In this document: one piece after another, positions 7,173 to 27,858 of the stretch
Layout: every line of letters starts with the position of its first letter
How positions within the stretch are numbered: position 1 is the first letter of the stretch
From: an uncultured Candidatus Saccharibacteria bacterium
GTDB lineage: Bacteria > Patescibacteriota > Minisyncoccia > JAHIHE01
Length of the DNA: 27,858 bases
Assembly: GCA_964552415.1 (NCBI GenBank)
Contig: CAZKGJ010000002.1
Coordinates: forward strand, 1 to 27,858
Direction: 5' to 3'
Made by a program: the position numbers and the translations under genes
Notes under the pieces: model-generated
Databases searched by the model: none
What the model saw: the letters and a program-made list of their open reading frames with translations, nothing else
What the model was told of the DNA's origin: nothing

Positions 7173-7211
7173 ATTATTGTGCTAAAATTTTTTTAATAAC
7201 CATTCGTGCAT

Positions 7212-7562
7212 ATGGAGAGATTTTATCCAAATTTAGACATAAAATCATTTACTAGTTGTCCTTTGTGCAATAATCAGTATGGTTCACGTGAAATAAAGAT
7301 TCTAAGCAGAGAAGACGAGTCGGTTACACTTTATCTTAACTGTCCAAACTGCAAAAATGCGATAATTTCGGTAATTAGCGCTGGAGTATTAGGAATAACA
7401 GTTGCAAGTATGGTTACCGATCTCAGCACATCAGAAGTTGAAAGAATTAAAAACGAAAAGGCCGTAAGCACAGACGATGTTTTGACAATTTATGAATTTT
7501 TATCCCGCAAAAGCAAACCAGTCCGCAAAAAAACAAAAGCACACATAAGTATTAAAAGTTAA
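7212..7562 (+). CDS. Hypothetical zinc-ribbon protein
   Basis: CPLC and CPNC pairs followed by a hydrophobic stretch and TDL...DDVL. Alternative start GTG 7206. Confidence 0.7.
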   Translation: MERFYPNLDIKSFTSCPLCNNQYGSREIKILSREDESVTLYLNCPNCKNAIISVISAGVLGITVASMVTDLSTSEVERIKNEKAVSTDDVLTIYEFLSRKSKPVRKKTKAHISIKS

Positions 7563-8271: not shown

Positions 8272-8374
8272 GTTCCATTTGGCGTATATATTATTAAAAG
8301 CTCAAGGTTATAAAATTATTTTTTAATGTTTTATAGCATTGAGCTTTTGTCTTAAGAATGGATTAGTTTCATCT

Positions 8375-9703
8375 ATGGCTAAAAAATGCTTATTAAATTT
8401 ATTTATCGCCGTTATTTTTTTATTTTCTTTCTTTTTTGGTTTCAGCATATGGCAAGTCCAGGCCGATACTATAAGCGATTCCAAAGCCGCCCTAGAGGAG
8501 AAGAAGGCCAAGTTGGAGGAAGAAATCTCGCGCCTGCGGCAAGAAATAGACGCTCTCAAGCTTCAGGTCGGCCAGAAAGAGAGCGAAAAGAAGAATTTAA
8601 AAAAAGAGGTTGATATTCTGAACGGGAAAATCAGGGCGATTGAGCTGGAAATAAAAGCCACCGAGCTCGAGGTTGAACAACTTTCTTTTGAAATCAGCTC
8701 AACGGAAGAAAAAATAAAAACCAAAGGAGACGATTTGCTAAGGCGGAAGGATTTTTTGACAGAGTTGATGAGGGTACTGTATTTTTCGGATAATAAGTCG
8801 CTTACCGAAGTTTTTATTACATATGATAAATTATCCGATTTTTGGGACGAGTTTCAAAAAAATGAAACGTTACAAAGAAACATCAAAGACGCCATAGAGA
8901 ACATAAAAATTGCAAAACTGGAGCTTGAAAACAATAAGGTGAAATTATTGGACGAGCAGGAAGAAAAAAATTATCTGCTGGAGCTGAAAGAAAATCAAAA
9001 TCGGGATCTGACACTAAACAAAAAAGAAAAGCAGAAGATTTTGACTTCAACAATCAATGAACAGAAGGAATTGCAAAAACAACTTGAAAAAGGCGAGAAG
9101 CTTCTTCCCGCGATGATTGCACAGCTTCGTTCTTTGGAAATCGCCGGACAGGTGATTAACGCCGATATGGCCATAGCAGCCGCAAAATTCGCCTCGCAGG
9201 CGACCGGAGTAAGACCAGCGTATCTGCTCGGAATTTTAAAAGTGGAAACGAACTTGGGCGCAAATCTCGGCAGCGGATATTATAAAACAGATATGAATCC
9301 GTCTCAACAGCCGACTTTTTTGGAAATAATAAACGAACTTGGTCTGCCGGAAACTGTTCCGGTAAGCAAGAAGCCGAGAACTTACAGCGGCTGGGGCGGC
9401 GCGATGGGTCCGGCACAAATGATGCCTTTAACCTGGACGGCTTATAAGGCAGGCGTAACTTCTATCACCGGCAGTAATCCGCCCAACCCCTGGGACATAA
9501 AAGACGCGGTTGTGGCAATGGCTTTGAAGGTGTCCCAAGTTGCAGGAGTTGTCGGCGCGAATTTCAATGCGGAATACGAGGCGGCGGCAAGATATTTTGC
9601 CGGCGATAACTGGAGAAAATTCGTTTGGTATGCCAAAAATTCTTCTGGCACAGGAGTAATGGATTGGGCAGAAAGATACGAGGAGTTGTTAAAGGGTGGA
9701 TAA
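8375..9703 (+). CDS. Secreted coiled-coil protein with a C-terminal lytic murein transglycosylase domain
   Basis: Signal peptide ending VQA, a long E/K coiled coil, then LLGILKVETNLG and GGAMGPAQMMPLTW (lysozyme-like fold). ATG 8375 preferred. Confidence 0.8.
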   Translation: MAKKCLLNLFIAVIFLFSFFFGFSIWQVQADTISDSKAALEEKKAKLEEEISRLRQEIDALKLQVGQKESEKKNLKKEVDILNGKIRAIELEIKATELEVEQLSFEISSTEEKIKTKGDDLLRRKDFLTELMRVLYFSDNKSLTEVFITYDKLSDFWDEFQKNETLQRNIKDAIENIKIAKLELENNKVKLLDEQEEKNYLLELKENQNRDLTLNKKEKQKILTSTINEQKELQKQLEKGEKLLPAMIAQLRSLEIAGQVINADMAIAAAKFASQATGVRPAYLLGILKVETNLGANLGSGYYKTDMNPSQQPTFLEIINELGLPETVPVSKKPRTYSGWGGAMGPAQMMPLTWTAYKAGVTSITGSNPPNPWDIKDAVVAMALKVSQVAGVVGANFNAEYEAAARYFAGDNWRKFVWYAKNSSGTGVMDWAERYEELLKGG

Positions 9704-13848: not shown

Positions 13849-14709
13849 ATGATTGCACAAGCTAAAATTTATCCATGGGCAAAAAAATCCGAATTTGACA
13901 TTGGCAATTTAAAACTACAAAAAGGAAATTATATTATCGTAAAAGACGCTGATGATCGAGAAGGCGATATAGAAGCGATTGAGATACTTGCCGTTAGAGA
14001 AAAAACTTCCGCTGAAAATGCGAGGCCGATTATAAAAATCGCCAACGCTTCCGATATTGAACGAATAAAACAATACAGCATAAAAAAATCTGAGGTATTG
14101 AATTTTATAAAAAGTAAAGTGAGGAGCGGTAATATTAAAATTAAAATTATAGACATACAATTCAGTTTTGACAGTTCGCGGATAAATGTAGCTTTTACCG
14201 CAGCGCAGAGGGTGGATTTCAGAGAACTGGTAAAAGATATTTCAAGGCATTTTCAAAAGTCAATAAAAATGATTCAGGTCGGCGTTCGGGACAGTGCGAG
14301 AAATTTCGGAGGAATCGGTGTATGCGGAAGGTGTTTGTGCTGCGCCAGCTTTTTGAAAAAACTTGAAAGCGTGACTATAAGCGACGCCAAATCTCAACGG
14401 CTGGACAGCAGATCGGCAAGCCGTCTCAGCGGCGTATGCGGTCGTCTTAAATGCTGTATGGCATACGAGGCCAAGTTGTATAACGAGCTGAGTAAAAGCT
14501 TACCCGAAATTGGGCGAGAGGTAATCACGCCGCGTGGAGAAGGCGAAGTTGTGGACTTGGATATTTTATCTCGCAGGGTAAAAGTGCGGCTGGCAGACAA
14601 AACCTCCACCCTTTTTAACTTCGGGAATATAAAATTAATCAGCCGTAATGCGGGGCTGATAAAAAAAGTTAATACGAAATCCATTGTTAGTATTCGCAAG
14701 AATTTCTAA
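13849..14709 (+). CDS. PSP1-domain / stage 0 sporulation YaaT (RicT) family protein
   Basis: RVDFRELVKD, GGIGVCGRCLCC and SGVCGRLKCCMAYE motifs. Confidence 0.88.
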   Translation: MIAQAKIYPWAKKSEFDIGNLKLQKGNYIIVKDADDREGDIEAIEILAVREKTSAENARPIIKIANASDIERIKQYSIKKSEVLNFIKSKVRSGNIKIKIIDIQFSFDSSRINVAFTAAQRVDFRELVKDISRHFQKSIKMIQVGVRDSARNFGGIGVCGRCLCCASFLKKLESVTISDAKSQRLDSRSASRLSGVCGRLKCCMAYEAKLYNELSKSLPEIGREVITPRGEGEVVDLDILSRRVKVRLADKTSTLFNFGNIKLISRNAGLIKKVNTKSIVSIRKNF

Positions 14710-14725
14710 TGTGGCTTGTAAATTT

Positions 14726-15244
14726 ATGAGTTACGACGCCGTCTTATCAACCTTGATTATTCTTTCGTTTTCTGGCATAATTATAACCTTAGTTAGAAAA
14801 ATTCCCGAAGTTTCTTTAGAATATCAGCAGAACAAAGCATTGTACGATACTATAGCCGATAAAAGCGGAAAACTTTCAAGGGCGGAAAATTTGTTTCGTT
14901 TTGTCCTAGTAAGACTTGAGAAGCTCTTGCGCCAGATAAGAATATACATCTTGAAACTGGATGGAAAAACATTCGGATGGATTCAATATTTGCGCAAAAG
15001 ATCTTTGGAAATTACTTACAATGCCAATAAAATTCCGCTGAAATTGCATTTTAAAATAGAAGAAGGCAGGATTTTAAATATACTTGCCAAAAATCCTAAG
15101 AACCCAGAAAATTACAAAAAATTGGGATTATTGTATCTTCAAAGCAAAAATTTTAAAGATGCCAGCGAAGCGCTGAAAGAATACCTGAAACTGAATCCAT
15201 ATGACAAAGAGATTAAAAAAATCTTAAAAGAAATGCCGACTTAG
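14726..15244 (+). CDS. Membrane-anchored TPR-like protein
   Basis: N-terminal TM segment and a C-terminal TPR-like NPKNPENYKKLGLLY...A...L.LNP. ATG 14726 preferred. The stop codon overlaps the split tRNA shell. Confidence 0.7.
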   Translation: MSYDAVLSTLIILSFSGIIITLVRKIPEVSLEYQQNKALYDTIADKSGKLSRAENLFRFVLVRLEKLLRQIRIYILKLDGKTFGWIQYLRKRSLEITYNANKIPLKLHFKIEEGRILNILAKNPKNPENYKKLGLLYLQSKNFKDASEALKEYLKLNPYDKEIKKILKEMPT

Positions 15245-19046: not shown

Positions 19047-19499
19047 ATGGTGAAAATAAGAAAAATAAAATTATCGGATTTAGCCAAATGCGCCGAAATT
19101 TTGGAAAAATCCTATGGCAAGCCGCCTTACAACGAAAAATTCCCTGGAGGCGTCGCCTTTGATTATGTGAAAGGAAAATTTGATTATTGCAAAGAGCACA
19201 GTTTTGTAATTGAAGAGGATAAAGAAGTAATAGGTTTTGTTTTTATTAACTTATCTTACTGGACTTTCGGCAAGCAGGCTATAATCGAAGAAATCGTGAT
19301 CTATGAAATCAGGCAAAGGAAAGGCTATGGAAAAAAACTGATGGAATACGCTGAAAATTATCTTAAAAATTTAGGTGTGAAATCACTGATGCTGTGGGGG
19401 AGAAAAGATGCTAATGCTTATAATTTTCATCTTAAAAACGGATTCATAGAAGACGAAAATATGGCAGTTATGTTCAAGAATTTTAGTAAGCAATTATGA
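19047..19499 (+). CDS. GNAT family N-acetyltransferase
   Basis: Acetyl-CoA motif IEEIVIYEIRQRKGYGKKLM, plus AYNFHLKNGF. Confidence 0.88.
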   Translation: MVKIRKIKLSDLAKCAEILEKSYGKPPYNEKFPGGVAFDYVKGKFDYCKEHSFVIEEDKEVIGFVFINLSYWTFGKQAIIEEIVIYEIRQRKGYGKKLMEYAENYLKNLGVKSLMLWGRKDANAYNFHLKNGFIEDENMAVMFKNFSKQL

Positions 19500-20350
19500 G
19501 AATCTTATTAACTGGAAAACCAGGAGTCGGAAAAAGCACTGTTCTTAAAAAAGTTGCCGATGGTTTTAAATTGCCGAAATATGGAATAATGGCAAGAGAA
19601 ATAAGAGATGTACGAGATCAAAGAATAGGGTTTGAAGCTGTAACGCTTGACGGTAAAAGCTGTATGTTTACGCATAAATCTGCCCTTAAAACCGAATTTA
19701 CCGTCGGGAAGTATTATGTGGACGTTAAAGCTATTAATGAGTTTGTTGTCCCAGAATTAAGAAAAGGTTTAAGTAACGATAAAGCCATTATTTTAATCGA
19801 TGAAATAGGGAGAATGCAATCGTTTTCAACCGAATTTTTGAATGCTGTAAGAGATTTATTTTTAAGCAAATCAAACCTGCTGGCAACGATAGTTTTTGAG
19901 GACGAACCGTGGAGCCTGGAATTTAAAAATCATCCAAGCATAATACTTATTGAAGTTAATATCAAGAATCGCGAATATCTGGTTGAAATATTAGAGGCCA
20001 TTTTTTCTAATATGGGAGCTTATGGCAAGTTAAATCCGCAGCAACAAGAATTTGTAAATGGAAAATTAAGAGAATTTGTCTCTCAAAATAAATTCATTCA
20101 GGCAAAAAAGCTTTTTAAAAATGCCATAGTATATGTTGCCGAAAAAAGAATAAAAAAGATTCTTGATAATAGCGAATTAATCGAGTATTCGGTAAGTGGT
20201 AAAGACAACAAACACAAAGTTATATTTTATAAAATAACGAATAAATATAAGTGCGATTGTGATCTATTCAGTGGAAAAGGTGAATTTAAGAGAAATGCTG
20301 GTGAATGTTCGCATATTATGGCGGTAAAAATATTGAACATTAAACAGTAG
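19496..20350 (+). CDS. THEP1/NTPase_1-type P-loop NTPase fused to a C-terminal SWIM-like Zn finger
   Basis: Walker A ILLTGKPGVGKST, VGKYYVD and IILIDEIGRMQ; C-terminal CDC-x15-CSH. Confidence 0.8.
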   Translation: MRILLTGKPGVGKSTVLKKVADGFKLPKYGIMAREIRDVRDQRIGFEAVTLDGKSCMFTHKSALKTEFTVGKYYVDVKAINEFVVPELRKGLSNDKAIILIDEIGRMQSFSTEFLNAVRDLFLSKSNLLATIVFEDEPWSLEFKNHPSIILIEVNIKNREYLVEILEAIFSNMGAYGKLNPQQQEFVNGKLREFVSQNKFIQAKKLFKNAIVYVAEKRIKKILDNSELIEYSVSGKDNKHKVIFYKITNKYKCDCDLFSGKGEFKRNAGECSHIMAVKILNIKQ

Positions 20351-20362
20351 AGTTAAAAAAAA

Positions 20363-20391
20363 TTGACATTATTATCAAGATATTATATAGT
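20363..20391 (+). promoter_or_regulatory. sigma70 promoter for the kamA-ligase unit
   Basis: TTGACA (20363-20368), 17 nt, TATAGT (20386-20391). The leader has the hairpin gttctatt/aatagaac (20401-20421) and SD AAGGAGG (20446-20452). Confidence 0.7.
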
Positions 20392-20460
20392 TTAAATACG
20401 GTTCTATTGGGAAAATAGAACTTGTTCATTATATAGACGATTATAAAGGAGGAAAAAACA

Positions 20461-21444
20461 ATGAAGAAAAGGCTAGAAACTGTACAAATGAGAGAAAAAG
20501 TTACTCCTCATATTAATAGACTGATTGAGAGCGGTAATCAAGCTATTAAGCTACAATTCAAACAATCTTCCGAGGATTGTCCGGTCCCACTATTGTTCTC
20601 TGATGATGATCCTTTAGGAGAAGAATCCAATTATTCGCCAATAAAAGGAATTATCCATAAGTTCACGAACCGTGTTCTTTGGAAAGTTTCATATAGATGC
20701 GCCGCTCATTGCCAGTTCTGTACAAGGAGGCGGCAGATAGGCAACAAAGACGGAGATCTGACAGTGGAAGACATAAAGTGTGGATTAGAGTATCTCGCTA
20801 TGCATTCGGAAGTAGATGATGTAATTTTGAGTGGCGGAGATCCTTTTTATACTCCGAAAATAACTTTGCGGATCATAGAAGGACTTATTCGGATACAATC
20901 CGTTAAGGTTATTCGTATCGGAACGCGATTACCGATTCACGCTCCGAAGAGTTTAGAAAATCCGCTTCAGAAAAAATTACTGAAGAAACTGTCCACTATT
21001 GCCAAAAAACGACCGCTGTTTATACTTTTGCATATTGAGCATCCAGATGAATTAACAATAGAGACTGTTAAGGCGATAAATCTTTTAAAAAGAACAGGAG
21101 CGATATTGCTTTCGCAAACCGTATTTTTAAAAAACATCAATGATGATAAAAATATTCTCGAGAAACTTTTTATCTCCCTTTACCATCTCGGTGTTATGCC
21201 TTATTACATCTACAGATGCGATTATGTTCAAGGGCTTGAGCGATTTGTCTGCTCAATTGAAAAGGAACAGCAGATAATGACAGATCTGCGACGATGCCTT
21301 TCTGGAATTGCCGTGCCAACATACATTGTCGATGTCCCGGGTACAGGAAAGATTCCGGTTCCATTGGCTTTTTGGGAAGGAGTAGATCTTTCAAAATGTA
21401 CTGATTTCAACAACAGAACCATCGTTATAAAGGAAACCGATTGA
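20461..21444 (+). CDS. KamA-family radical SAM aminomutase (lysine 2,3-aminomutase-like)
   Basis: DPLGEE..SPIKGIIHKFTNRVL, CAAHCQFC (CxxxCxxC), VILSGGDP, IRIGTRLP, SQTVFLKNIND, GVMPYY and PTYIVDVPGTGKIP (PLP lysine region). Confidence 0.88.
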   Translation: MKKRLETVQMREKVTPHINRLIESGNQAIKLQFKQSSEDCPVPLLFSDDDPLGEESNYSPIKGIIHKFTNRVLWKVSYRCAAHCQFCTRRRQIGNKDGDLTVEDIKCGLEYLAMHSEVDDVILSGGDPFYTPKITLRIIEGLIRIQSVKVIRIGTRLPIHAPKSLENPLQKKLLKKLSTIAKKRPLFILLHIEHPDELTIETVKAINLLKRTGAILLSQTVFLKNINDDKNILEKLFISLYHLGVMPYYIYRCDYVQGLERFVCSIEKEQQIMTDLRRCLSGIAVPTYIVDVPGTGKIPVPLAFWEGVDLSKCTDFNNRTIVIKETD

Positions 21445-21462
21445 TATGAGGAGGTAGAAAAA

Positions 21463-22467
21463 GTGAGAATCACAATTCTCTATAATATTGCAGAATATGA
21501 TAGAAAAGGAATACCATCAGATTTGATTTGCGAACAGGAGATTTTGATAATAGTTCCGCTCGTAGCTGATATACTTCGCAAAAAAGGACACAAAGTGGAA
21601 ACGCTAAAAGCAAGCTATAATCTCTGGAACGAGCTTAGGGAAAGAAAGGGTAAAACTGATATTGTTTTCAATTTAGCCGAGGCATTCGGAGGAGAAAATG
21701 CAAACGAAACTCTTGTGCCGGCCATGCTTGAAGCACTGGATATTCCGTTTACAGGCGCGTCGTCGCATAATATGTATTTCACCTTGGATAAAGAGAAAAC
21801 AAAAATTCTTCTCGCTGACTACGGAATTCCTATTGCGCCGCATCAAGTATTCCGCCATGGCGGCGAAAAACTGAAATCATGTTTGTCTTTTCCCCTGATT
21901 GTAAAACCTATCAGAGAAGAAGCAAGTATAGGAATCCATCAAGATAGCGTCGTTCTGAACGAACAAGAACTGAAGCGTAAAATTAGAGACACCCTCGAAA
22001 GATATCGGCAACCGGCACTAGTTGAACGATTCATTATCGGAAGAGAGGTTTCGGTCGGCATAATCGGCAATGCGCCGGACTTGCACGCGTTCTCGCCCCT
22101 TGAGTTCTTGTTTAAGGAAGCAAAATCTCCTTATGAAGAAATTCGTTCGTACGAATACAAGTGGGGAGGGAAAAAAGAACAGATGGTTAAGGCAAGTCTT
22201 TCCTACGAAGTCAAGCAAAAACTTGCTGAATATACGCGTCTGGCTTTCGTTGCTACGGAGTGTCGCGATTATGCGCGTATGGATTATCGGATTGATACCG
22301 AGGGTAATATTTATCTTCTGGAAGTAAACTATAATCCCGGCATAGGCCCTAATACGCACGGACTCAACAATACGGTAACCATGATGGCCAGCTTTGAAGG
22401 GTGCACGTTTTCTGATTTAATCGGAAAAATCGTGCAGATATCGGCAAAAAGATACGGTATTTCATAA
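21463..22467 (+). CDS. D-Ala-D-Ala ligase-like ATP-grasp enzyme
   Basis: VFNLAEAFGG, LDIPFTGAS, LDKEKTK, PLIVKPIREEASIGI, CRDYARMDYR and LEVNYNPG. SD GAGGAGGT before GTG. Confidence 0.88.
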   Translation: MRITILYNIAEYDRKGIPSDLICEQEILIIVPLVADILRKKGHKVETLKASYNLWNELRERKGKTDIVFNLAEAFGGENANETLVPAMLEALDIPFTGASSHNMYFTLDKEKTKILLADYGIPIAPHQVFRHGGEKLKSCLSFPLIVKPIREEASIGIHQDSVVLNEQELKRKIRDTLERYRQPALVERFIIGREVSVGIIGNAPDLHAFSPLEFLFKEAKSPYEEIRSYEYKWGGKKEQMVKASLSYEVKQKLAEYTRLAFVATECRDYARMDYRIDTEGNIYLLEVNYNPGIGPNTHGLNNTVTMMASFEGCTFSDLIGKIVQISAKRYGIS

Positions 22468-22473
22468 AAATTT

Positions 22474-22509
22474 AACAGGCGTTTATCACTTATAAGCGCC
22501 CTGTTTTTT
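22474..22509 (+). terminator. Intrinsic terminator after the Ddl-like gene
   Basis: aacaggcgtttat/ataagcgccctgtt stem (one bulge, one G-U) with a cactt loop, ending in a T6 tract. Confidence 0.7.
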
Positions 22510-22531
22510 AAAAACTAATTAGTTTATCAAT

Positions 22532-23920
22532 ATGGCGAATAAAAAGAACAATTATAAGCATATTATTTTCGCAAACGTTGCCGAAGCTTTTAAAAATGTT
22601 TTGGATAAAGTTACAAATAAAAAAGAGAAAAAGGAAAGAATTAATCTTGAACATAATCTTTGCCATAGATCTCTTTTTTGGGAAAAAGACGACAAAGTAG
22701 TTATAACTCCCTTTGCAATACCACCGGCATTCATAGATCAGAATTGCCATATCATGGATTTTAAGAATGTAAAAAATTTATTTCCGCGCAAAATTGATAG
22801 TATAAGTTTATCGGATGCTATACTAAAGGATAAATATTTACTACAAACTATTATCCAATTCATTAAGAATAATCCGGGAATCAATCTTTCTCCCTATGCA
22901 GTCACTCCTGATTTTTTGAAATTACTGGAAGTTTTTAGAAAAGGAAAAATGATTTTTCGAACAAATGAAGTGCCGCTGGCATATTCAAGATGGATTGTTT
23001 CTTATCTGGATTCGAAAGTTGGCTTTCGCGAAGAAGTTCTTAAACTGCGAAATAAGAAAATAAATATTCCGGAAGGTTTTGTTTGCGAAAAGAAAGAAGA
23101 AGCAAAAAAAGCGGCTATTTGGTTTTATATGCATAATCGTTCTTGCATAATTAAAGCAAACCATGGAGAATCGGGATGGGGATTAATCCCGCTAAAAAAG
23201 AAAAATTTTATTTCGGTATCAAGTTTGGAAAAAGAAATTGAAAACAATCTTTTCAATGATTCGATTTGGAAAAACGAATTTATTGTAGTGGAAGAATTTA
23301 TTGAACCTAACCTAAAAATAGGAGGCGGCTCGCCTTCAGCGGAGTTACTTTTAACCGATAAAGGCCCAAGATTAACTTATATCTGCGGGCAAATAGTCGG
23401 GGAAGGCGGAAATTTTTTGGGAGTTATTATGGGCAAAAAATTAATGGGTGATCAAATTAACGCAAAGCTTACTTATTCAAGCTATGCCATAGGAGAAAAA
23501 TACTGGAAATTGGGCTATCGAGGATTTTTTGATATAGATTTCGTTATTTCCCGAAATGGGGAGCCTTATGCTACAGAGACTAATGCAAGAAGAACCGGCG
23601 GTACTCATATTTTCGATATAGCAAGAAGGGTTTTCGGCTCGAATTGGGATAGAGATGCTTACCTTTTCTCACAGGATTCGTTTAAATATGCCGGAAAAAA
23701 TTTGCCAACAGGTATTTTGATCGAAAAAATGAAGCAAATTTTATTTCCCGTGCAAAACAGACAAAAAGGTGTTATTATGACACTGGTTAATCAGCAATTG
23801 CCAATATTTGGTTTTGCTATAGTTGCCCCGACTTTATTAGAAATAAAAAATTTGTATACGGAACTTTGCAAAACATGGCAGGTAAAGCACGATAATTTTA
23901 TAATACCGACTAATAATTAA
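22532..23920 (+). CDS. ATP-grasp peptide ligase (PGM1-related / preATP-grasp type)
   Basis: IIKANHGESGWG, VVEEFIE, GGGSPSAE, GYRGFFDIDF and ETNARRTGGTH motifs; 462 aa. Confidence 0.75.
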   Translation: MANKKNNYKHIIFANVAEAFKNVLDKVTNKKEKKERINLEHNLCHRSLFWEKDDKVVITPFAIPPAFIDQNCHIMDFKNVKNLFPRKIDSISLSDAILKDKYLLQTIIQFIKNNPGINLSPYAVTPDFLKLLEVFRKGKMIFRTNEVPLAYSRWIVSYLDSKVGFREEVLKLRNKKINIPEGFVCEKKEEAKKAAIWFYMHNRSCIIKANHGESGWGLIPLKKKNFISVSSLEKEIENNLFNDSIWKNEFIVVEEFIEPNLKIGGGSPSAELLLTDKGPRLTYICGQIVGEGGNFLGVIMGKKLMGDQINAKLTYSSYAIGEKYWKLGYRGFFDIDFVISRNGEPYATETNARRTGGTHIFDIARRVFGSNWDRDAYLFSQDSFKYAGKNLPTGILIEKMKQILFPVQNRQKGVIMTLVNQQLPIFGFAIVAPTLLEIKNLYTELCKTWQVKHDNFIIPTNN

Positions 23921-23928
23921 AATGAATC

Positions 23929-24438
23929 ATGCCAAAGAAAAAACTTCTAAAAATTAAACCTTTCCAAGAAACGTTATATCATAGTTATTGCGGACCAGCC
24001 ACTTTGAAAATACTGTTTAATTATTATGGAATAGAAAAAACTGAAAAAGAATTAGCCAAAATGGCAGGGTGGGATAAAGATTTGGGAATAGACGATAAGG
24101 GAATAAAAAAAGCGGCAAAATCGCTTGGCTTCACGATAAAAATAAAAAATAATAGTAATTTTCGGGATATTCAAAACTGGTTAAATAAAGGCATTCCGGT
24201 AATCGTCAATTGGTTTACGCGAGGCAGAAATGATTATCCCGATTCGGAAACAGCCGATGGCCATTATTCCGTGGTAGCTGGTTTAGATGATAAATTTATT
24301 TATCTTCAAGACCCGGAACTCGGAAAAATGAGAAAAATTAAAAGATATGATTTTATGCGGGTATGGTTTGATTTCAAGGGGGATTATTTAAAACCAAAGG
24401 AATTAATAATCAGGCAAATTATCGCGATATATAGATAA
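23929..24438 (+). CDS. Stand-alone C39-like cysteine peptidase
   Basis: Q-x5-YCGPATL catalytic Cys, GHYSVV His and YLQDP Asp; no ABC or TM domain. Confidence 0.85.
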   Translation: MPKKKLLKIKPFQETLYHSYCGPATLKILFNYYGIEKTEKELAKMAGWDKDLGIDDKGIKKAAKSLGFTIKIKNNSNFRDIQNWLNKGIPVIVNWFTRGRNDYPDSETADGHYSVVAGLDDKFIYLQDPELGKMRKIKRYDFMRVWFDFKGDYLKPKELIIRQIIAIYR

Positions 24439-24446
24439 AGTTTATT

Positions 24447-25817
24447 ATGTTTGAAAAGTATCATTTATCGGAAAAAGCAAAAATTATTACTGATTCGGTT
24501 CCCGGCAAAGAATCTTTGAAGCTTTTAAAGATTCAGGAGAAAGTGGAAAGCAATAACCGATCGTATCCAAGAGGAATTCCTATTGCTTTTGATTCAGCTA
24601 AAGGAGCAATTATTAAAGATATAGATGGCAATCAGTATATAGATTTTTTGTCTGGATGCGGCGTTTTTAACCTCGGACACAATAATCCCGACATTATTAA
24701 AGACTTGGAAGAATTTCAAGGGAAAATAATGCAAGCCGTTGATTTTCCGACCAAAGTAAGAGAAGATTTTGTTATTGATTTGCTCGGGATTCTTCCAAAG
24801 CCATTAAATGGTAAATATAAAGTCAATTTCGGGGGTCCAACCGGATCCGATGCGGTAGAGTCGGCTCTTAAGTTAGCCAGAATAAATACCGGAAGGCATA
24901 CAGTTATAGCTTTCCATGGAGGATATCACGGTATGACAATGGGGGCATTAAGCGTAACCAGCAAACTTTCCCATCGAGAAAAAACACCCCCGCTGATTCC
25001 GGGTGTCCATTTTATGCCTTTCTGCAGTTCGTATCGCTGTCCGTTTAAGAAAAGCAAAGAAAATTGCGGAAAAGAATGCCTGCGTTATTTCGAGTATGTT
25101 TTGGAAAATCCAAGTTCCGGCGTAGATAAACCATGCGCGATAATCATTGAACCGATTCAAGGAGAAGGCGGCATCTACATACCGAAAGAAGATTGGCTGG
25201 AGGAGATAACCGATATAGCCAGAAGAAACGATGTCCTTGTTATCTTTGATGAGGTTCAATCTGGATTTTACAGAACAGGAAAACTTTTTTCTTTTGAGCA
25301 TACCCGTGCTGTCCCCGACATTATAATCATGTCCAAAGGAATTGGTGGCATTGGTTATCCTTTGTCTTTGATAATTTATAATAAATCTTTGGATAGATGG
25401 GAGCCGGGAACCCATATCGGAACATTTAGAGGCAACCAACTTGGAATGGCAGCCGGCATTTCGGCAATGAAATTCGTAAAAAAGATGAAACTCGAATTGT
25501 ATGTAAAAAAACTTGGGGAAAAAATGTTTGGCGAGTTAGAACAGATTAAAAACGAGTCCAAATATATCGGTGATGTACGCGGAATTGGTATGATGTTTGG
25601 GATCGAGTATGTAACGGATAGAAAAAGCAAAAAGCCCTTTATGGAAATGGCAAGGAATATAAGAAAAATATGCTACAAAAATGGCCTGCTTGTTGAAGTA
25701 GGCGGCCATTATAATAATGTCATCCGGCTTCTCCCTCCGCTGATTCTGACATCAAAAATAGCAAGTAATGGACTTGCTATATTCAAAAAGGCTAATAAAT
25801 TAGCAAAAAAAGCTTAA
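24447..25817 (+). CDS. Diaminobutyrate--2-oxoglutarate aminotransferase (class III PLP; Dat/EctB-like)
   Basis: NNRSYPRGIP, YIDFLSGCGVFNLGHN, GPTGSDAVE, EPIQGEGG, DEVQSG, MSKGIGG and HIGTFRGNQL. Confidence 0.88.
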   Translation: MFEKYHLSEKAKIITDSVPGKESLKLLKIQEKVESNNRSYPRGIPIAFDSAKGAIIKDIDGNQYIDFLSGCGVFNLGHNNPDIIKDLEEFQGKIMQAVDFPTKVREDFVIDLLGILPKPLNGKYKVNFGGPTGSDAVESALKLARINTGRHTVIAFHGGYHGMTMGALSVTSKLSHREKTPPLIPGVHFMPFCSSYRCPFKKSKENCGKECLRYFEYVLENPSSGVDKPCAIIIEPIQGEGGIYIPKEDWLEEITDIARRNDVLVIFDEVQSGFYRTGKLFSFEHTRAVPDIIIMSKGIGGIGYPLSLIIYNKSLDRWEPGTHIGTFRGNQLGMAAGISAMKFVKKMKLELYVKKLGEKMFGELEQIKNESKYIGDVRGIGMMFGIEYVTDRKSKKPFMEMARNIRKICYKNGLLVEVGGHYNNVIRLLPPLILTSKIASNGLAIFKKANKLAKKA

Positions 25818-25833
25818 TTTCTGGGCGAAAAAA

Positions 25834-26802
25834 TTATTCAAGAATTTGTCCAATTTTATTTCCTTCGGCTTTTTTAAAGTAATGTACAGCCATTGCAATA
25901 TCAAAGATAGCCATGCCCATTGGGTTAAACATTACCGCGTCCGTTGGGTGTATTTTTTTTAAGAAATCAGTGCTAATAATGTCTGTAATAGATAAAACAT
26001 CCTTCTTCTGCAACCCTTTTTCTTTGTGAAATATTTCAATATCCGTATTTTCTCTGCAAACTTCATTCCAATCGTCAACAATAATATTTTTTTTCACATA
26101 TTCGTATATGTCTGTTTTAAAATCTCGCAACGAAATGTTTAGCAGTAAGGATCCTTCTTTGGGCTTTTTGTTAATGTAGCGAGTTTTCGGCGCGGTGCAT
26201 GTGATAAAAACATCTGCGTCATGGTAAGCTTTTTCCCAACTTCTTGTTATGATTATTTTATCTCTTAAAGAACAGTTTATCAAATTCTTATCAATTTTGC
26301 GCAAATCGTATAAATATATTTTTGATATTTTATTGCCGAATATTTTCGTAACCATGTCAAAATGATTTTGACCAATAGGTCCCCATCCGGTAATGCCCAA
26401 ATTGAAATTTTTTAAGGGCCTTATTTTATCGAAATGTTTTAACATAAGGCCGCTTACCGAGACTGTTCTAATTATACTTAATAACGCCGTGTTTATAACC
26501 GCGATAATTTCTCCGGTAGTAGAGCTGTTTAAGATTACGATACTATGTGCTCTTGGAATATTTCTTTCTATATTCTTCGGAAAACTCGCTATCCATTTAA
26601 TGCCAGCCATATCAAATTCTTTGCCGATGAATGCCGGCATGGCAATAATTCTATTATTCAAATCCCTAAATCTTAAATAGGGTTTGACAGGCTGAGAGTA
26701 ATCATTTTCCTTTAAGCATTCCGTTGCTTTTGCGATTATGCTGATATTCTCAATCCAATCTATGCCCAATTGTCTTATGTGTTTTGCATTTAAATACAGC
26801 AT
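25834..26802 (-). CDS. sbnB: 2,3-diaminopropionate biosynthesis protein SbnB (ornithine cyclodeaminase-like)
   Basis: PVKPYLRF, RIIAMPAFIG, AGIKWIASFP.N...PRA, LLLNISLRD and FNPMGMAIFD; directly follows sbnA. Confidence 0.9.
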   Translation of the reverse strand: MLYLNAKHIRQLGIDWIENISIIAKATECLKENDYSQPVKPYLRFRDLNNRIIAMPAFIGKEFDMAGIKWIASFPKNIERNIPRAHSIVILNSSTTGEIIAVINTALLSIIRTVSVSGLMLKHFDKIRPLKNFNLGITGWGPIGQNHFDMVTKIFGNKISKIYLYDLRKIDKNLINCSLRDKIIITRSWEKAYHDADVFITCTAPKTRYINKKPKEGSLLLNISLRDFKTDIYEYVKKNIIVDDWNEVCRENTDIEIFHKEKGLQKKDVLSITDIISTDFLKKIHPTDAVMFNPMGMAIFDIAMAVHYFKKAEGNKIGQILE

Positions 26803-27765
26803 TTATTTGTGATTGGCTTTATTGATAAAATTGTCGTACCATTCTTGGTTATAAATCGTATTCATATACCGGTTCCCGCTATCCGGAAATACCATTATAA
26901 CATTTGGTTTTTTATTATGATGTTTTTCGGAAAAGTATTTTTTGACTGCGGCAAAAACCGTCCCAGAAGATCCTCCCGCAAAAATGGAATGCTGCTCCAA
27001 CAATTCATGGCACATTTTTACGCTGGAAATCTCATCCATCACTACAACATCATCAATTTCAGCTTTTTTTATGATTTTTGGAACAATGCTTGAACCCATG
27101 CCATAGATATGCCTTTTCTTAGGCGATCCCCCGAATATTACGGAGCCCTCAATATCTACGGCAATTATTTTTGCATCTGGAAAGCGCTCTTTTATTTTCT
27201 GCGATACGCCAGTTATTGTTCCTCCCGAGCTTACCGCCATAAAAACATAGTCGATTTTATTCAAGTCATTGCAAAGTTCATCTCCCAGAGTGCTGTAATA
27301 TGCTTCTGCGTTATATTCATTTTCATATTGGTTAACCCAATAGGAGTTTGGCATAGTCTTTTTAAGTTCTTTAACTTTTTTAATTCGATTTATCAGATAG
27401 TTTCCGTTTTTGTCCGCTTCTGCCACTTTTACTATCACAGCTTCCAATTTCCTTATTAAAGTTTCACTAAACGGGGAAGCTTTTAAATCGATAACGCAAT
27501 AGAATTTTAATCCGTATTTTTTTGCATATGCGCTTAAAGATAAGCCGAAGTTACCGGAAGATGATTCTATAAGAGTCGTTTCTTTATCGATTATCTTTTC
27601 TTTTATAAGTTTTTCTATTAAATAAGATGCAGCTCTGTCTTTGATACTCCCGGTAGGATTGTAAGATTCCAGTTTTGCAAACAAATTTATATTTTCCAAA
27701 CCTTTTGATTTTATTTCAACTAAAGGAGTTTTACCGACTTTATCCAAAATGCTACTATAAATCAT
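26803..27765 (-). CDS. sbnA: 2,3-diaminopropionate biosynthesis protein SbnA (cysteine synthase-like PLP enzyme)
   Basis: KLESYNPTGSIKDRAA, IESSSGNFG, WVNQYEN, AVSSGGT and FAGGSSG. The TAA stop abuts the sbnB ATG. Confidence 0.9.
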   Translation of the reverse strand: MIYSSILDKVGKTPLVEIKSKGLENINLFAKLESYNPTGSIKDRAASYLIEKLIKEKIIDKETTLIESSSGNFGLSLSAYAKKYGLKFYCVIDLKASPFSETLIRKLEAVIVKVAEADKNGNYLINRIKKVKELKKTMPNSYWVNQYENEYNAEAYYSTLGDELCNDLNKIDYVFMAVSSGGTITGVSQKIKERFPDAKIIAVDIEGSVIFGGSPKKRHIYGMGSSIVPKIIKKAEIDDVVVMDEISSVKMCHELLEQHSIFAGGSSGTVFAAVKKYFSEKHHNKKPNVIMVFPDSGNRYMNTIYNQEWYDNFINKANHK

Positions 27766-27798
27766 ACCCTTGTTATTAGGTGGTTATTTCAACAGAGT

Positions 27799-27826
27799 AT
27801 CATAACAAAAATTGTTTATTTGTCAA
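27799..27826 (-). promoter_or_regulatory. sigma70 promoter for sbnAB
   Basis: Minus strand TTGACA (27826-27821), 16 nt, TATGAT (27804-27799), with a TG extension. Confidence 0.6.
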
Positions 27827-27858
27827 GGAGGTTTTGGTGATTGCCTCAAATCTCAAAA

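Follow-up and report, generated by a model that had tools for sequence, protein, structure and literature searches.

Dapdiamide-type clusters combine genes for 2,3-diaminopropionate (Dap) with ligases that act independently of nonribosomal peptide synthetases (NRPS), and vioP of the viomycin cluster is the beta-lysine gene, its product being like lysine 2,3-aminomutase. The chemistry of Dap synthesis by SbnA and SbnB has been summarized, and capreomycin CmnB/CmnK are cited as homologues of SbnA/B (PMC10906522). In the closthioamide (CtaD/CtaG) and butirosin (BtrJ/BtrH) systems an ATP-grasp ligase is paired with a papain-like Cys-His-Asp enzyme in NRPS-independent, thiotemplated assembly (PMC7183216, PMC12865890). 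We examined a seven-gene cassette at the end of contig CAZKGJ010000002.1 from an uncultured Candidatus Saccharibacteria bacterium. The whole stretch of DNA analysed, 27,858 nucleotides and hereafter termed the window, is the entire contig C2 of one metagenome-assembled genome (MAG) from a mine-drainage metagenome, designated G000 (0.71 Mb, 92% complete, 109 contigs). The original prediction for this DNA was an NRPS-independent cluster in which two ATP-grasp ligases join several diamino acids; both ligases and the independence from NRPS held up, and the combination was not found described in the literature searched. What we find is a nested system, almost restricted to Patescibacteria, in which a C39-fold protein and the two ligases form a core to which genes for basic amino acids have been added independently.

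All seven predicted open reading frames (ORFs) were found in place, and each was matched to a family by profile search. In map order they are:

20461..21444, plus strand: kamA, KamA-family radical S-adenosylmethionine (SAM)/pyridoxal phosphate (PLP) 2,3-aminomutase of 327 aa, a short EpmB-like form (TIGR00238; aligned with lysine 2,3-aminomutase, LAM, 2A5H)
21463..22467, plus strand: ddlL, non-canonical Ddl-like ATP-grasp ligase (DdlL; Dala_Dala_lig_C, 6e-30)
22532..23920, plus strand: PGM1-fold ATP-grasp amide/peptide ligase with a pre-ATP-grasp domain (PGM1L; profile match, AlphaFold2 model and Foldseek)
23929..24438, plus strand: stand-alone cytoplasmic C39-fold cysteine peptidase or transacylase of 169 aa (C39L; Peptidase_C39 / C39_2)
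24447..25817, plus strand: dat, Dat-family (diaminobutyrate-2-oxoglutarate) class-III aminotransferase (TIGR00709, 456 bits, cut-off 401.6)
25834..26802, minus strand: sbnB, SbnB-family NAD-dependent dehydrogenase of the OCD/mu-crystallin fold (TIGR03944, 301.7 bits, slightly below the cut-off of 326.9)
26803..27765, minus strand: sbnA, SbnA-family PLP enzyme for the first step of L-2,3-diaminopropionate synthesis (TIGR03945, 387.9 bits, cut-off 349.95)

Recurrence was assessed by a pattern scan of species-representative genomes, from a tblastn table with 80 fetched loci together with metagenome contigs, and by ORF clustering over 24 non-redundant loci (compared loci carry L-numbers, and G001-G030 denote relatives within the order of G000). 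The pattern scan placed relatives of the ligase in 197 stretches, nearly all labelled Patescibacteria. The core trio of C39L, PGM1L and DdlL was present in about 25 non-redundant loci, whose hosts were Saccharibacteria, Daviesbacteria, Collierbacteria, Yanofskybacteria, Staskawiczbacteria, Paceibacterota and one Parcubacteria genome. Orthologues of PGM1L, taken as proteins of at least 37% identity, were accompanied by DdlL and C39L, and the C39 gene was adjacent in 26 of the 27 loci with enough flanking sequence. At the sole exception, L019:8953-11380, a DdlL and PGM1L pair without C39 occupies an island of 37-43% GC in a 212-kb contig of 45-51% GC that was binned as Aminicenantes (8.2-Mb bin); the island represents either a transfer out of Patescibacteria or a binning/assembly chimera. 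The full seven genes occurred in two gene orders, in the window, L009/L010, L012, L022, L042 and L128, and other loci held the trio alone (e.g., a complete Daviesbacteria chromosome, CP066688.1) or a ligase-C39 pair alone. The modules could also be split: KamA was the only addition to the trio in L035 and L036, L025 had KamA and Dat without SbnAB, and L034 had SbnAB without Dat; SbnAB also occurred as the sole addition to the trio. Two further Dat-bearing loci, L040 and L044, end at a contig edge. No other gene, whether transporter, racemase, carrier protein or any ORF of at least 35 aa, recurred in three or more of the 24 loci. The system is therefore nested: C39L comes first, then the two ligases, then SbnA/SbnB, Dat and one of two KamA subtypes, each independently added. 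The claim of a seven-gene cluster thus stands insofar as the set recurs and is co-inherited, but it is not a fixed unit, being instead a C39/PGM1-like/Ddl-like core with three separate supply modules.

The ligases, Dat, SbnA and SbnB agreed in their pairwise divergence (rho 0.5-0.83), whereas KamA compared with the other cassette genes gave rho 0.1-0.35, because KamA was recruited as two subtypes (52-82% and 38-39% identity). The original prediction had named absence of co-occurrence elsewhere and discordant phylogenies as what would count against it; the gene set instead recurs and its divergence is concordant. A chance juxtaposition or assembly mosaic might be suspected since the window is a single contig of one MAG, but several studies and lineages have yielded the same set in assemblies independent of one another, its adjacency conserved, and the recurrence and concordant divergence together leave this explanation practically no probability. 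The stretch was also present in four DNA sequencing runs of one mine-drainage sample, although these runs are possibly the source of this very DNA.

The cassette was not found in same-genus, same-family or same-order relatives. Between G000 and five other carriers RF1 was 43-51% and class II aldolase 31-38% identical, whereas DdlL, C39L, Dat, SbnA and SbnB were 55-81% identical across the same genomes; the GC content of the cluster was 36.4% compared with 40.7% for the genome. The higher identity of the cassette proteins, the absence from relatives and the GC shift argue for horizontal spread of a co-inherited unit. These data indicate that the cassette, almost restricted to Patescibacteria, is horizontally mobile.

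The function that we tentatively prefer, as the leading candidate and not as a settled assignment, is a carrier-free, NRPS-independent cytoplasmic assembly of a putative short peptide or pseudopeptide from basic diamino or beta-amino acids. DdlL would join two amino acids by way of an acyl-phosphate intermediate, and PGM1L would extend the DdlL product at its amino end by another amino acid in a reaction of the PGM1/BesA type. The building blocks would be L-Dap (from SbnA/B), beta-lysine (from KamA) and possibly 2,4-diaminobutyrate (Dab, from Dat); in trio-only genomes they would presumably be imported lysine or ornithine. The C39-fold enzyme may then hydrolyse or transfer the product, in maturation, turnover, self-protection or transpeptidation. 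Each supply module is present or absent independently of the others, and each of them suggests basic diamino or beta-amino acids; the simplest reading makes them interchangeable inputs to one ligase chemistry. No carrier protein (PP-binding) was found in G000, and none was recurrent in the 24 loci; any transfer would therefore be carrier-free. The lack of a carrier protein in the locus and the genome also led us to set aside a thiotemplated mechanism of the CtaG/BtrH type. We likewise rejected a ribosomally made, post-translationally modified peptide, given that no conserved precursor ORF of at least 35 aa was found in the 24 loci (ORFs under 35 aa were not systematically searched) and the gaps between genes are too short, and a mycosporine-like MysC/MysD pathway, since no gene for DDGS/EEVS or an O-methyltransferase is linked to the cassette. 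All the components come from known families, and Dap-using ligase clusters independent of NRPS are already known. The combination is new in the literature searched: two new ATP-grasp subfamilies, a near-obligatory C39 partner, no carrier or precursor, optional supply modules, and near-restriction to Patescibacteria.

Several results weigh against assembly of such a peptide. The substrates proposed for the ligases are suggested by the neighbouring genes only. No exporter, resistance gene, regulator or product was conserved across the 24 related loci; the lack of an exporter given in the original prediction is borne out for the window, and none is conserved in any related locus. In eleven trio-only genomes an SbnA- or Dat-family gene was found nowhere in the genome, so Dap and Dab are optional inputs and diamino acids made in-house are not required. 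The ligase was absent from 10 of 11 near-complete genomes with a high-identity C39L; since C39L occurs mostly without the ligases, its role need not be biosynthetic. In 12 of about 21 carriers (G000, the complete Daviesbacteria chromosome and 10 more), no Ddl homologue other than DdlL was found. The substrates of the supply enzymes pose a further difficulty: neither asd (Semialdhyde_dh) nor a SerA-type dehydrogenase (2-Hacid_dh; a kinase route or uptake is possible) was found in the 92% complete G000, and its sole AA_kinase match, of 233 aa, has the size of PyrH (UMP kinase), leaving the canonical precursors of Dat and SbnA, aspartate semialdehyde and O-phospho-L-serine, unaccounted for.

The claims for the two diamino acid enzymes accordingly need qualification. 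Dat is above its family cut-off (and under the EctB equivalog cut-off, 389 compared with 552), but the source of aspartate semialdehyde is missing from what we found in G000; SbnA, also above cut-off, is encoded by a gene that abuts that of the SbnB-family protein (26802/26803), and either gene always accompanied the other where the contig permitted, but for Dap synthesis the SerA-type dehydrogenase was not found. The cluster most closely related to that of the window, L009/L010, has an ORF of 136 aa that matches PEP_mutase (PF13714) and sits, in the same orientation as sbnA, 8 nt upstream of it (L009:8993-9403 and L010:7743-8153, both minus strand); a full PEP mutase would be longer, and at this place the window has a promoter and the contig end. 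For KamA, alignment with the Clostridium LAM structure 2A5H was strong (E 1.8e-48), although the protein lacks the C-terminal LAM domain and scored below all cut-offs (TIGR00238, 198.3 compared with 199.2 and so marginal; AblA, 221 compared with 525.4; EpmB, 180.5 compared with 369.3). Its CAAHCQFC sequence forms the CxxxCxxC iron-sulfur/SAM motif and aligned to LAM C125/C129/C132; GTGK aligned to GGGK337, which carries the PLP lysine, and the carboxylate-binding Arg134 is kept in CTRRR. Asp293 and Asp330 of LAM, which bind the lysine epsilon-ammonium, are retained (YRCD for YQCD293; IVDVPG for VVD330APG), in line with the predicted beta-lysine type of activity. In glutamate 2,3-aminomutase these two residues are replaced. 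Basic-amino-acid 2,3-aminomutase is a reasonable call for KamA on these residues.

The best NCBIfam score of DdlL, 144.6 bits, was below the Ddl family cut-off of 243. The protein retains the ATP-grasp catalytic residues (equivalents of DdlB K215, R255, D257, E270 and N272). Its D-Ala pocket was compared in an alignment of 12 DdlL orthologues with 8 canonical Ddl proteins from the Candidate Phyla Radiation (CPR), and of the pocket elements the E15 equivalent alone was retained. The GGxS loop is replaced, HG..GEDG has become AEaFGGxNxNE (H63), GSS has become EAS (S150), KY has become KW (Y216 now Trp), and the S281/L282 loop has a 5-residue insertion; these replacements were invariant across the 12 subfamily members. 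Judged by this alignment, DdlL forms a subfamily of its own, separate from the canonical D-Ala-D-Ala ligases.

These data bear on a different explanation, namely that the cassette feeds cell-wall synthesis, which we consider unlikely but worth serious attention. DdlL would provide MurF with the terminal dipeptide or some variant thereof; PGM1L would add a side-chain or cross-bridge residue; C39L would trim or recycle stem peptides as an isopeptidase; and SbnAB, Dat and KamA would give the diamino acid where lysine or diaminopimelate is not made. An ATP-grasp enzyme of this kind is the D-aspartate ligase of Enterococcus faecium, which adds a cross-bridge residue to the peptidoglycan precursor. 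G000 has four Mur ligases and DdlL as its single PF07478 match, and that about half of the carriers (G000 and 11 more) have no Ddl homologue besides DdlL keeps a peptidoglycan role alive; in this respect the cell-wall option of the original prediction has stronger support than had been implied. Neither an alanine racemase nor an Asp/Glu (glutamate) racemase was found in G000, the top Foldseek match of C39L was a pseudomurein endoisopeptidase, one stand-alone C39L gene lies beside genes for MurJ and an M23 peptidase (L129), and the absence of an exporter fits internal use. Against this, a canonical Ddl (145-255 bits) was additionally present in nine carriers, the pocket residues of DdlL are altered, the endoisopeptidase match was no better in TM-score than the matches to C39 domains, and a patchy, horizontal distribution would be unusual for core functions of the wall. 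All 31 genomes (G000 and its 30 relatives) had 1-6 Mur-ligase matches, with 4-6 in all but two, yet most of the 30 relatives were without both a convincing Ddl and the cassette; the absence of Ddl is thus a trait of the lineage for which the cassette does not compensate. The narrower idea of DdlL as a plain housekeeping Ddl is weakened by the same three findings: canonical Ddl in nine carriers, Mur ligases in relatives with neither Ddl nor cassette, and the altered pocket. Six of the relatives (G004, G011, G012, G016, G020 and G024) have open frames, about 830 aa long, that contain Ddl-like domains.

PGM1L was modelled by AlphaFold2 with a pLDDT of 90.5, and Foldseek ranked 8ynd, 3wvq (PGM1) and 8yi6 (BesA) highest, with E values of 1e-23 to 1e-26 and TM-scores of 0.71-0.84, the next ATP-grasp fold following at 1e-16. 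The similarity in sequence to PGM1 and BesA was weak (16-18% identity); the "PGM1-like" assignment is confirmed by fold. Relatives of PGM1L numbered about 90 in a large protein collection. Distant stand-alone paralogues (27-35% identity; L041-L096, e.g., L049, L051 and L068) occur commonly in Collierbacteria, Gottesmanbacteria and other Microgenomates, lack a Ddl-like or C39 partner, and are surrounded by lineage synteny only, with genes for a VirD4-like ATPase, AAA, FtsK, RNase J, TsaD and NUDIX. An Agrobacterium plasmid homologue (24% identity) was dismissed as a related system, its natural-product-like locus being unrelated. Complex prediction for PGM1L with C39L returned a score of 0.00, which is no verdict and counts neither way.

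The catalytic set of C39L (Gln13, Cys21, His112 and Asp128) was invariant, and the AlphaFold2 model (pLDDT 83) had a C39/papain-like fold. Foldseek gave PeiR, the pseudomurein endoisopeptidase, as the best match, together with the ComA and PCAT1 peptidase domains and 3erv; the phytochelatin-synthase-like Alr0975 and the amide-forming CtaG were listed lower, the CtaG matches being weak (TM 0.53-0.55, rmsd above 8 Å). No transmembrane segment or signal peptide was predicted for C39L, and no ABC transporter or precursor gene stood beside it in any context examined. As it is cytoplasmic, has neither an ABC partner nor a precursor ORF, and occurs mostly without the ligases, we rejected C39L as a bacteriocin leader peptidase. 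The protein is widespread, with 1795 clusters at 90% identity compared with about 90 for the ligase, the top 120 all being at least 71% identical, and it was found in 27 of 301 sampled genomes of the phylum. Its mean identity was 65-70%, compared with 43% for the adjoining PGM1L. At L129:6111-7504 a stand-alone C39-like gene adjoins the gene for a 255-aa Peptidase_C39_2 protein, with MurJ and the M23 peptidase nearby, a cell-envelope context.

The strong conservation of C39L could be that of an enzyme that recognizes a conserved macromolecule, and a modification of proteins or peptides was therefore considered. C39L would cleave a ribosomal protein or peptide encoded elsewhere and PGM1L would cap the new amino end with a non-protein amino acid or the DdlL dipeptide, after the logic of pheganomycin, or the ligases would add residues to a conserved protein in the manner of RimK. 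Enzymes of the PGM1 family do join an amino acid to the N-termini of peptides, the match in fold is strong, and C39L is alone in many genomes. We nevertheless think this quite unlikely, as there was no conserved ORF of at least 35 aa near the cassette in the 24 loci, a precursor would not fit into the intergenic gaps, an ABC exporter is lacking, and no candidate target was found. Less likely again is a part in salvage or turnover, with C39L hydrolysing peptides that are imported or come from hosts or competitors (unusual and isopeptide bonds included), possibly as a detoxifying orphan immunity enzyme, and the ligases reusing the amino acids; the cassette would then serve nutrition or protection and yield no bioactive compound. 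That C39L is so much commoner than the ligases, that most carriers have it alone in the pattern of an orphan resistance or utility gene, and that the organism lacks synthesis of amino acids and D-amino acids would agree with salvage; the repeated recruitment of Dap and beta-lysine synthesis genes beside the ligases would be left unexplained, and no uptake system was linked in the 24 loci.

A variant to which we give a similarly small chance has C39L as a transpeptidase, following the logic of phytochelatin synthase, that would draw on the energy of peptide bonds to oligomerize or transfer the ligase-built unit and give an oligocationic peptide of Dap, Dab, beta-lysine or lysine, serving intracellularly as a polyamine substitute or attached to the envelope in organisms without synthesis of polyamines and amino acids. 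C39L would here be the anchor of Patescibacteria-specific carrier-free cassettes, with a second C39 paralogue in G000 marking a sister cassette. This paralogue (contig C3, 22209-25013, equivalent to L016:7210-10014, minus strand) is 73% identical to the window copy and has a weak BtrH_N match. It is flanked by genes for a NUDIX-APH fusion and an APH-type kinase, with a cytidylyltransferase, a class-III aminotransferase and a methyltransferase adjoining; the C3 locus resembles a further small-molecule cassette centred on the same C39-fold protein.

The cassette was predicted to lie between two inward-facing promoters, and the two best sigma-70-like sites in 19400-27858 are indeed at its borders; promoter-like sites as a class were not enriched in this region (24 observed, 30.7 expected). 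The elements identified were:

20363..20391, plus strand: promoter-like TTGACA-17-TATAGT upstream of kamA (11/12 match, joint best), inside a 110-nt intergenic gap
20401..20421, plus strand: 8-bp inverted repeat GTTCTATT/AATAGAAC in the kamA leader just downstream of the promoter, possibly an operator or 5' hairpin (sequence inspection)
22478..22510, plus strand: terminator-like hairpin (22478-22500) and T-run between the two ligase genes, with a 9-bp stem containing 4 GC pairs
27799..27826, minus strand: promoter-like TTGACA-16-TATGAT with TG upstream of sbnA (11/12 match)

The hairpin at 22478-22500, missed in the original prediction, divides the plus-strand genes into kamA-ddlL and ligase-C39-dat and suggests that the two groups are expressed separately or with attenuation. 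Terminator-like hairpins at 25758-25780 (minus) and 25937-25951 (plus) were also seen, the one for each convergent unit sitting within the 3' end of the opposing gene (dat, sbnB); the dat and sbnB stop codons are only 16 nt apart. An Rfam search at E up to 1 detected neither a riboswitch nor any other RNA family in 19400-27858, the inverted repeat and the hairpin included.

The contig ends 93 nt past the start of sbnA, in a tail that carries the promoter and zero ORFs, and gaps between cassette genes are 8-64 nt. All seven proteins were predicted to be soluble and cytoplasmic, and PADLOC assigned no defence-system match to the five cassette proteins submitted. The first 20 kb of the window is of a housekeeping nature (RuvX, TIM, aldolase, L25, RF1, PrmC, L31, S2, EF-Ts, RicT, UppS, PIMT and MltG), and the closest named relatives of RF1 from G000 were Patescibacteria ("Pacebacteria", "Moranbacteria") at about 58-61%. 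Three ORFs amid the housekeeping genes had no Pfam or NCBIfam match (8339-9703, 454 aa; 7206-7562, 118 aa; 14684-15244, 186 aa; all plus strand).

With their tiny genomes, Patescibacteria (CPR) are regarded as synthesizing hardly any amino acids or secondary metabolites, and here up to seven genes are spent on making and joining non-protein basic amino acids; the cassette thereby offers concrete, testable chemistry specific to the CPR. A product directed at hosts or competitors would count as a rare natural product of the CPR, assembled by a combination of ligases not found in the literature searched; if the cassette feeds the cell wall, it would help to explain peptidoglycan in lineages without Ddl, alanine racemase and glutamate racemase. 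Either way, it gives a first functional handle on the abundant stand-alone C39-fold enzyme of the CPR (about 1800 sequence clusters), and its two new ATP-grasp subfamilies are possible amide-bond biocatalysts.

Comparison with described systems shows likeness in parts. PGM1L shares its fold, including the pre-ATP-grasp domain, with PGM1, 8ynd (Streptomyces) and BesA, well apart from other ATP-grasp folds; the low identity to these enzymes sets it off, as do the absence from the cassette of a ribosomal precursor gene and of Streptomyces-type tailoring genes, and the C39-fold partner, which is lacking in those systems and present in nearly all PGM1L loci. DdlL has the fold and the ATP/Mg and acyl-phosphate residues in common with canonical Ddl enzymes (DdlB/VanA) and differs from them in substrate pocket and score. 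C39L has the fold and the Gln/Cys/His/Asp set of the C39 domains of ComA, PCAT1 and LahT; it differs in being stand-alone and cytoplasmic, without an ABC transporter or leader-peptide gene, and PeiR matches it equally well. With CtaD/CtaG and BtrJ/BtrH the cassette shares the pairing of enzymes, CtaG being among the structural matches of C39L and the C3 paralogue having its BtrH_N match; the differences are the carrier protein of those systems, which was not found in the cassette or G000, the weakness of the CtaG match, and the other ATP-grasp families to which the ligases belong. The viomycin and capreomycin loci (VioB/VioK for Dap, VioP for beta-lysine) likewise bring SbnA-like, SbnB-like and lysine 2,3-aminomutase-like genes together, whereas the cassette has no NRPS, assembly being proposed to proceed by ATP-grasp ligases, and its supply modules are independent. 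The dapdiamide-type clusters resemble it in having SbnA/SbnB homologues beside stand-alone ATP-dependent amide ligases, from which a small Dap-containing peptide would be expected; the cassette departs from them in its PGM1-fold and Ddl-derived ligases, the added KamA, Dat and C39 proteins, the optional nature of the Dap genes, the lack of an exporter or resistance gene, and its Patescibacteria hosts.

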